Shown piece after piece: positions 1-3,000 of a stretch of DNA of 27,915 nucleotides. Within the stretch, counting starts at the first letter, position 1. Each line of letters starts with the position of its first letter. Position numbers: made by a program. The DNA comes from a virus (taxonomy: Duplodnaviria; Heunggongvirae; Uroviricota; Caudoviricetes): the IMG/VR virus record IMGVR_UViG_641736226_000038; one strand, written 5' to 3'.

Positions 1-3000
1 AGTGAGTATTCAGTGTTGGGATTTGAAAATCACATGAACGTGTTTCATGAGAACAAACATGGGTTACCCGAGGCGCTGGCCCGTGGCTTGGCCGTGTTCC
101 TGAACACTACCGCAGTGGATAAGTACTTCCGTCGCTTCAACGGGCATACACAGGTCAATGCAACCGACCTCAAGATGATTAAGTACCCAAGCCGTGACAC
201 TCTGATAGAGCTTGGCAAGTGGGCTATGCAACAAGAAACTCTCACGCAAGAACATATTGACGCTAAGCTAGGAGCTCTGACTGCATGAACAACCAAAATG
301 ATTATATTGAGGCCGCTCAGCAAATTATAGCATCCTTAGGCCTGCCCAGAGCGCAGCAGAATGAGCGTTCTGCTTTGTGTTTGCTGGCACTCCTGAACCT
401 CACACCGGGAAAAGCATGGGCCGACGCGGAAAATCCGCTTGTGGGCATTACACCAATCATGAATTGGGTTCGGGAGCACTACGGCAAGGTCTACGCACCC
501 AATACTCGTGAGACATTCCGCCGCCAGTCTATGCATCAGTTCTGCGCTGCTGGAGTAGCCCTCTACAATCCGGACAAGCCCGATCGCCCAGTGAACAGCC
601 CGAAGGCTGTTTATCAGATCGAACCTGCTGCTCTGTCCATGCTACGCACTTTCGGCAGCCCGGCATGGCACGATAGCCTTGCAACCTATTTAGCCGAGCG
701 TGAAACGCTGGTTACCCGCTATGCTAAGGAGCGCGAACAGAATCGTATCCCTGTTGAAATTGCTGCGGGCCAGCAAATAACCCTCAGTCCCGGCGAGCAC
801 AGCGAACTTATCCGTGCCATAATAGAGGACTTCGCCCCACGTTTTGCTCCGGGTAGCGTGCTGGTCTATGCTGGCGACACTGGCGAAAAGTGGGGCTACT
901 TCGACGCTCCACTGCTGGCCGGGCTAGGTGTTGATGTGGATTCACACGGTAAAATGCCAGATGTGGTGCTACATTTTACTGCGAAAAACTGGCTGCTACT
1001 GGTTGAGTCTGTCACCAGTCATGGACCGGTTGATGGGAAGCGGCATGCTGAGCTTGCCAGGCTGTTTGCCGGATCAACAGCCGGACTTGTCTATGTGACC
1101 GCTTTTCCAAATCGCTCCATCATGGGGCGATATCTTGGTGAAATCGCATGGGAAACAGAGGTATGGGTGGCTGATGCACCTTCTCATCTTATTCACTTCA
1201 ACGGAGTGCGATTTCTTGGCCCCTACTCTACTGAATGAGAACAGGACCAGATAAATAGCCCGGCCCATGCGCCGGGTTTTTCTTTGCATATCCCCTCCTG
1301 TTATCTGTCCCCTTAAAAAATAAATCACTTTAAAAATCAGTTAAGTAATAATTTCTCGCCCCTAAAAAGCACCAGCGGTATTTACATGAAAATCACCGAA
1401 AGTTATATTTATTTCAAGCCAGAAACATCGCGCCCTTACACAGGGCTACATAAATCAGTCGTACGGCGCGACTTAACCCGCCGCAAAATGCTCTTTAACA
1501 ATCTGGAGCTTTACAGCGTCAATGACCTGTTTAGACCCCTACACGTAAACGTGCTGTATCATCGGGTGCGATCCGGTCGATGAGAGAGTATCCCCGCGCG
1601 AGAGCGAGAACGGCGTGAGAACGGGCAACACTGGCAGGAAGTTGGCGCTGACCAATACAGGGAATGTTTTGGGGTGCAGGCGGCACCGCCAAAGCGTTTC
1701 TGAGAAAGGACGGTATTGACTGCGTGTGATGTCGGGGGCTATATTTGGCGAACACCTTATAAAACGGGTGTCGGGATTAGGACCCCGCTGACAATCGAGG
1801 CGATACAGACGCGCCAGCGTCTTTTTTTGTATCGATATACACGCACATCTTATCAATGGTGGGCTGTATGGGGCCGACTTCGGTCGGGCTGGTTCCCTTG
1901 ATTGCCAGTAGTCCTAACCCTGTACAGTCCACCGCCAGCGAGCTTAGGACCTCCTGCGGTGGTTCTCAATCACCAATCAAGGAGGCTGCCATTATGGCTA
2001 CTATCCCTGCCCTTTCTCAACCTGAAATCACCATTACCAATGGTCGCGTTGTCACAACGTCTATTGCTATTGCTGAATTTTTTGACAAGCGGCACGACGA
2101 CGTTTTAAAAAAAATCCGATTGATGGATTGTTCTACGGAATTTAACGCCCGCAATTTTGCGGACGTTACCTACACCGACGCCAAAGGCGAACAACGCCCA
2201 ATGTACCAAATCACCAAAAACGGATTCGTTTTTCTGGTGATGGGCTTCACAGGCAAAAAAGCAGCTGCATTCAAGGAAGCCTACATTGCTGAATTCGATC
2301 GCATGGAAAAACAACTATGGGTACAGAAACAACTGGCCCTGTCTTCTCCTGCGATGAACATCAACTACCCTCTCTCGTGGTTCTCAGATAACCATCCCTA
2401 CGCCACGATGAACTATGTTGATCGCAAGGTTATCAGCCTTGATGCTTCCGTGCTCTTCGATATGCCAAGCCCAACTATGCGCATCCTCAACGAGCTACAC
2501 AGCAAGGGCTATAACGTCGATGCAGCTGTCGCCGAATTTAACGCCTTCAAGCATCTGACGGAAGAAATGCGCCGTAAATTGCTGGATATTTCCCGCACAT
2601 CGGAAAAATCTTCCCGCTTTGGTTTCAACGTTAATCTTTAATTAACCCCATCCCCGATCACATATCGGGGATTAAATAAAATATCTGGATTAATTAACCG
2701 GAGGATTTGTCATGCTCAAACCTCACTACGGAACCGCATTAGTTTCTCGCGAGGACGTTAAACCCGGCACAGCAATTCTTTACAACGGGCGTTATTACAT
2801 GGCGTCAGCGAACGTTAATAATGCACTTTACGCACATTCACTGATTGAAAAAATTCGCATTATCTCAGATGCAATAGAAGTTTACCTGAACAATAAAGGC
2901 CAACCGTTAATCTCACCAGCCTGAAAGGAAATATCATGCTCAATCAAAAAATAAATATCAATGTAAAAAGCGTCGTAACTCCAGCAGGAACGATAATGGG

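Follow-up and report, generated by a model that had tools for sequence, protein, structure and literature searches.

Why does a lambdoid prophage carry a restriction-modification (R-M) system in its early regulatory region, which enzymes does the system encode and which phage genes govern its expression? The question is raised by a 27,915-nucleotide stretch of viral DNA, here called the window, whose first 1.3 kb had been read in a preliminary description as a Type II R-M module carried as a moron. The gene pair is almost certainly the EcoGIII Type IIP R-M system of Stx-converting lambdoid phages. EcoGIII is already known from Stx prophages and was named and experimentally characterised, by biochemical and genetic tests, in 2012 in the O104:H4 strain of the 2011 outbreak; the point that seems under-described is the wiring of its expression to the repressor gene.

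The window opens with the 3′ end of the M.EcoGIII methyltransferase gene (1..288, + strand), which consists of the last 95 codons in an open frame 1 and a TGA stop at 286–288. Without a single difference these 95 residues match the C-terminal end of the 489-aa methyltransferase WP_000939558.1, in agreement with the earlier recognition of a methyltransferase 3′ end at this position, and the start of the gene lies 1,182 nt ahead of window position 1. The full gene is present in O104:H4 C227-11 and in E. coli FRIK1989 (NZ_CP111101.1), the latter being identical to the window across the first 9,400 bases and matching it across the remaining 19.8 kb with a single gap. We infer from the sequence matches that the methylase gene is intact in the source strain, the window holding 288 nt of it and the matching genome supplying the rest. 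By itself the 95-aa fragment has no match in Pfam or NCBIfam because it is located after the catalytic motifs, and it is presumably the target-recognition part of the methylase. The motifs DAGAGLG (AdoMet-binding motif I) and NPPY (motif IV) both lie outside the window in the full-length protein, which matches Pfam Eco57I (3.3e-9) and, across its full length, PADLOC MTase_II (5e-248).

The stop codon of the methylase overlaps the ATG of the following gene (285–287), giving an ATGA at 285..288 on the + strand, and an AGGAG Shine-Dalgarno sequence for this second gene lies within the methylase coding sequence (270..274, +), with the ATG 10 nt downstream. The second gene (285..1238, +) encodes R.EcoGIII, a 317-aa Type IIP restriction endonuclease of the BsuBI/PstI family. 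An N-terminal HTH domain covers residues 7–143 (BsuBI_PstI_RE_N, PF17728, 1.2e-54, profile positions 3–139 of 140) and a C-terminal nuclease domain covers residues 155–307 (BsuBI_PstI_RE, PF06616, 4.6e-61, positions 1–153 of 154). PADLOC REase_II matches the full length of the protein (1.6e-168) and residues 8–315 match the solved SdaI structure 2IXS (1.2e-77); the NCBIfam search gave no match for the endonuclease. The ATGA coupling to a PstI/BsuBI-like endonuclease proposed earlier is therefore upheld. Of the Pfam matches that had been expected for both reading frames, that of the endonuclease was found, but the methylase fragment gave none and it is the full-length methylase that has a match, to Eco57I. 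PADLOC also holds an 840-position profile (PDLC03359) to which the methylase aligns at positions 12–510 and the endonuclease at 531–839; since one profile spans both proteins, single-chain M-R fusions of the family appear to exist elsewhere.

An intrinsic terminator (1257..1286, +) closes the operon. Its stem at 1257–1278 has 8 pairs, 6 of them G-C, around a loop of 6, and the T-run TTTTTCTTT comes directly after. In the terminator scan this was the best terminator-like site within the first 2.2 kb, and the region folds with −20.8 kcal/mol (z = −2.6), in line with the strong terminator originally described.

The name of the system follows from identity to proteins that have been studied. WP_001064714.1 of O104:H4 C227-11 is identical to the window endonuclease at 317 of 317 residues, and this accession and WP_000939558.1 are common to the gene pairs of FRIK1989 and C227-11. 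The claim of a complete Type II system on a lambdoid prophage stands. According to PMC6602927, which cites Fang et al. 2012, EcoGIII of the C227-11 Stx2a prophage places m6A on CTGCAG and restricts lambda-like phages, and cleavage of CTGCAG by the identical C227-11 protein is reported on the same authority in PMC6602927 and PMC3893438. The C227-11 R gene product is described as biochemically active (PMC3893438). In lysogens with a 99%-identical enzyme CTGCAG is 100% m6A-methylated (PMC6602927), and cloned EcoGIII lowers the conjugative entry of unmethylated plasmid (PMC4288162). This published work on identical proteins (PMC6602927, PMC4288162) bears out the suggested protection of the lysogen. 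In the prophage considered here, M.EcoGIII would thus put N6-methyladenine on CTGCAG sites across the lysogen chromosome, R.EcoGIII, a PstI/BsuBI isoschizomer, would cut CTGCAG that lacks methylation, and lambda-like phages and conjugating plasmids arriving without the mark would thereby be restricted on entry. A toxin-converting prophage that restricts incoming DNA as well as methylating every CTGCAG can influence the range of phages and plasmids acquired by its host, and can alter host gene expression.

To place the pair among its relatives we examined its distribution. Of 5,426 complete E. coli genomes searched by megablast, 144 carry the module, in every case chromosomally and in 113 of the 144 at 99% DNA identity or above. 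It is also present in 98 phage records, mostly from Stx2a-converting phages of the genus Oslovirus. When one genome per species was scanned, the endonuclease had at least 598 relatives, and the counts of gene context given here rest on the best 80 of them. These 80 come from Chloroflexota, Pseudomonadota, Verrucomicrobiota, Cyanobacteriota, Acidobacteriota and other phyla and are approximately 70–90% identical in amino acid sequence, one truncated match reaching 94%. A methylase gene lies directly upstream on the same strand in 78 of the 80, with the ATGA overlap in 66 of these 78, which means that the M-R arrangement is not due to chance. A search for a cI homologue near the R-M genes outside Stx phages found none at the 80 loci, and in Serratia nevei it is a resolvase gene that precedes the cassette. 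Nucleotide similarity to the non-phage copies covers M, R and a leader of about 40 nt only and ends near window position 1251, placing the terminator, and the hairpin after cI described below, on the phage side. On this comparative evidence the M-R pair is a compact unit, mobile between bacterial phyla, that the present phage lineage has taken up.

The prophage that captured it is lambdoid and Stx-converting (genus Oslovirus, Sepvirinae), with its stx genes outside the window. The matching genomes show, one after the other, cro on the opposite strand, a gene for a cI-like LexA/S24 repressor, a gap of 95 bp, M, R and the terminator, and then approximately 470 bp of non-coding DNA, the isrK RNA, the C4 RNA and genes for a Rha-family protein, GamL, RecT and a YqaJ/lambda-type exonuclease. 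The preliminary description had located the pair where lambda carries ral, sieB or ea10, and this has to be corrected: the pair begins 95 bp after the end of the repressor gene, in the same orientation, and so occupies the slot that rexA/rexB has in lambda, with cI on one side and the leftward early genes on the other. Downstream, the antirepressor that had been expected is present as the Rha-family protein, with isrK and C4 RNAs ahead of its gene. The expected gam-bet-exo order is likewise kept, with GamL in first place, but “bet” is a RecT-family gene and “exo” belongs to the YqaJ/lambda-exonuclease family. In the O157:H7 “PST2” Stx2a phages and the O104:H4 phage the early regulatory region has been reported to include a bsuBI R-M system, placed “at the corresponding region” with cI on one side and N on the other (PMC4587872).

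A scan from the repressor promoter region to M found neither a + strand sigma-70-like promoter nor an intrinsic terminator in the cI-M gap, the promoter scan being one of consensus matching that a weak promoter below threshold could escape. As the gap is only 95 bp on the same strand and contains no such promoter or terminator, and as a terminator stands right after R, we infer that the lysogen transcribes cI, M and R together, which is consistent with the full CTGCAG methylation of lysogens. A single transcription unit would then run from cI through M and R to the terminator at 1257–1286, as in lambda cI-rexA-rexB, and with this arrangement the system would be made in the lysogen. With M in first place and R coupled to it through the ATGA and the internal Shine-Dalgarno sequence, the endonuclease would be translated only after the methylase, and probably less of it, so that host DNA would be protected when the phage establishes itself in a new cell.

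The cI-M gap contains a stable hairpin with a 16-bp stem, formed by a 15/16-bp inverted repeat, TTTGACATCCTTCAC...GTGGAGGATGTCAAA, which is located at 6738–6778 of the matching-genome segment, outside the window, 41–81 nt upstream of the M start codon and has no T-run. The 116-nt region that includes it (segment 6715–6830) folds with −37.7 kcal/mol (z = −3.6). The hairpin could attenuate or process the transcript, or bind a protein. A search for operator-like repeats common to the cI-cro region and the R-M flanks gave only short two-copy matches of chance quality, which agrees with the report that no operators were found in phages of this type (PMC4587872).

The 3′ half of the repressor gene and the R-M genes also travel together. 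The cI region is matched in all 98 phage records with the R-M system, each of which holds the 3′ half of cI, and in 23 of the 98 the match begins only from mid-cI onward. No empty site was seen among the phage records, since every record with a matching cI 3′ half carries the R-M system too. In phage Lyz12581Vzw, one of the 23, the N-terminal half of cI, the cI-cro intergenic region and the cro gene are unmatched; from mid-cI to 19 nt beyond the stop codon of R, however, the DNA is 95.5% identical and keeps the cI-M hairpin, with one base inserted in its loop. From this comparison Lyz12581Vzw is probably of a different immunity type. The R-M genes may be inherited with the C-terminal (RecA-cleavage) domain of cI as one recombination block, across immunity types. 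Lyz12581Vzw differs further downstream, where a two-gene insert of approximately 1.2 kb (7446–8622) separates the R stop from the equivalent of window position 1403, with two terminator-like copies that resemble window 1257–1287 on either side of it. The insert looks like a cassette placed at the terminator.

A more far-reaching reading of expression, which we would put somewhat short of an even chance, is that the R-M system is built into the prophage immunity operon and is no free-standing accessory cassette. The maintenance promoter would then drive cI and the R-M genes together, the hairpin would tune the level of the R-M system, and the pair would be inherited jointly with the C-terminal domain of cI. 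If this is true, the system would stand in functionally for rexAB and would no longer be made once induction destroys the repressor.

The distribution of target sites was examined in the window and in a complete phage. The window contains 5 CTGCAG sites, where 7.1 ± 3.0 are expected, and none in the first 16.7 kb (1–16686); three are in ISEc8, one in the tRNA-Arg gene and one in the neighbouring prophage remnant. Avoidance of CTGCAG by the whole phage was considered and rejected: phage P13374 has 12 sites, where base composition predicts about 15 and a Markov estimate about 23, and in a list of the 64 six-base palindromes by increasing observed/expected ratio CTGCAG is the 41st, so that it is not among the depleted sites. 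All 12 sites of P13374 lie at 20.9–48.2 kb, within the remaining ~40 kb (the replication-late region and beyond), and none lies in 1–20919, a stretch that starts at the integrase gene, takes in cI and the helicase gene and ends within the primase gene. If sites were evenly spread, the chance of a CTGCAG-free stretch of 20.9 kb would be approximately 0.01 by a rough estimate. This stretch might relate to the timing of immunity-operon expression.

Other explanations concern what the system is for and how it is expressed. One, which was already raised when the locus was first described, is that the pair is mainly a selfish addiction module: on loss of the prophage the methylase would be diluted faster than the endonuclease, the chromosome of the cured cell would be cut and the prophage would in this way be stabilised. 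Several Type II R-M systems, such as EcoRI and PaeR7I, are established cases of post-segregational killing, and the mobility of the cassette across phyla in varied contexts, next to a resolvase gene in Serratia and cI in Stx phages, also speaks for it. However, our literature search found no EcoGIII experiment that addresses post-segregational killing, and the viable R-M deletion of C227-11, as mentioned in PMC6602927, neither supports nor excludes it. Taken as the main role, addiction is possible but on the unlikely side; judged against what is generally known of Type II systems it is plausible as something compatible with the defence role and would not be an alternative to it.

A less likely view is that the main significance of the pair is epigenetic, with the phage methylase reprogramming host expression through CTGCAG and restriction being secondary. 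Its support comes from C227-11, where loss of EcoGIII by deletion altered approximately 1,900 genes (1,951) and affected growth, according to PMC6602927, which cites Fang et al. 2012. Such transcriptome changes could, however, be indirect. The endonuclease gene is moreover intact, it is part of a module conserved at 99% DNA identity or above in most of the E. coli genomes that carry it, and the enzyme is reported to be active, which argues for selection on restriction.

It is improbable that the pair constitutes an independent moron, inserted into the leftward early (PL) operon with a promoter of its own and expressed with the early lytic genes and not in the lysogen. The pair has its own terminator, and the restriction of its similarity with non-phage copies to M, R and the short leader is what would be expected of an imported cassette. 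That much of the moron designation can be kept, but a promoter of its own for M was rejected when the scan of the cI-M gap gave none on the + strand, and GC content (0.49–0.56 across M-R vs 0.42–0.54 in the flanks) marks no distinct island. Furthermore, the full methylation of CTGCAG in lysogens (PMC6602927) means that the system is on in the prophage state, the pair lies upstream of the isrK-C4-Rha-gam-recT-exo block and not inside it, and it is inherited along with the 3′ half of cI. That the pair is an inactive remnant or a mis-called pair of reading frames can be dismissed, since the truncation of the methylase gene by the window is all that speaks for it and stands against full-length domain matches, identity to proteins reported active (PMC3893438) and an architecture found in 78 of 80 relatives.

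The remainder of the window has features of its own. Rfam identifies an isrK sRNA and a C4 antisense RNA at 1752–1827 and 1852–1939 and a second pair at 13708–13781 and 13807–13890, with scores of 53–79 bits, all above gathering. Each isrK-C4 pair is just upstream of an antirepressor-like gene, Rha at 1994–2641 and an ORF6N protein at 13943–14620, the 3′ parts of which are 87% identical in DNA (2360–2574 vs about 14340–14554); the arm thus has two P1/P7 immI-like RNA-controlled antirepressor units. The annotated RefSeq start of the Rha gene at 1868 (its reading frame opens at 1856) overlies the C4 RNA match, as does a Pfam “Ash” match on the first 57 Rha residues. The true start is more likely the ATG at 1994, from which the score of the Rha domain is unchanged. 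The early-left arm also includes a gene of the phosphoadenosine-phosphosulfate-reductase family (7695–8573, +), according to the RefSeq annotation of the identical genome.

Further to the right are a HigA-like HTH gene (12641–12946, − strand) and a ParD-like antitoxin gene (13361–13618, −), for neither of which a toxin partner was recognisable. Between them a 93-aa reading frame (13035–13316) has no Pfam match and encodes a hydrophobic N-terminus followed by a cysteine. No endonuclease gene adjoins a second DNA methyltransferase gene, of the MT-A70 family (15104–15730, +; 1.3e-22), which has the appearance of an orphan phage methylase. ISEc8, an IS66-family element with tnpA, tnpB and a transposase gene (15999–18311), is inserted between the DUF1382 and DUF1627 genes. 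A tRNA-Arg gene (20375–20446) lies between two integrase genes, that of the Stx-type prophage (19011–20180) and intS (20612–21769) of a P22-like remnant, whose genes for ejection proteins and for a tail needle, the latter truncated, lie at 21944–24760. Two prophages stand here in tandem at a single tRNA site.

The closest known system is EcoGIII of the C227-11 Stx2a prophage, which is the same as that of the window in the endonuclease (317/317 residues) and in the methylase fragment (95/95), with locus DNA 99.7% identical over window 1–1398. Its flanks are also the same, with cI upstream and Rha, GamL, RecT and exo downstream. The module itself shows no difference, but the host strain and the integration site do, the prophage here adjoining the tRNA-Arg gene in a genome matching E. 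coli FRIK1989. EcoGIII is also found in phages P13374, TL-2011c, phi191 and Ss-VASD and in the O157:H7 PST2 phages.

PstI of Providencia stuartii and BsuBI of Bacillus subtilis belong to the same two-domain endonuclease family and are the prototypes of PF06616 and PF17728. The PstI genes are divergently transcribed, whereas here M precedes R with a 4-nt overlap. The CTGCAG target is shared according to the EcoGIII literature, and the partner in both cases is an N6-adenine methylase with NPPY. SdaI (2IXS), to judge from the alignment, presumably has the same fold, with an N-terminal DNA-binding domain and a C-terminal nuclease domain, and it reads E-A-V-K-S-K where the window endonuclease reads E-S-V-T-S-H. 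The site of SdaI is the 8-bp CCTGCAGG.

In genetic position the nearest counterpart is lambda rexA/rexB, which likewise follows directly after the repressor gene in the same orientation and is closed by a terminator. The two systems do the same kind of job in shielding the lysogen from other phages (PMC6602927 for EcoGIII), but their proteins are unrelated and the means differ, rexA/rexB acting by abortive infection and EcoGIII by restriction of unmethylated DNA.
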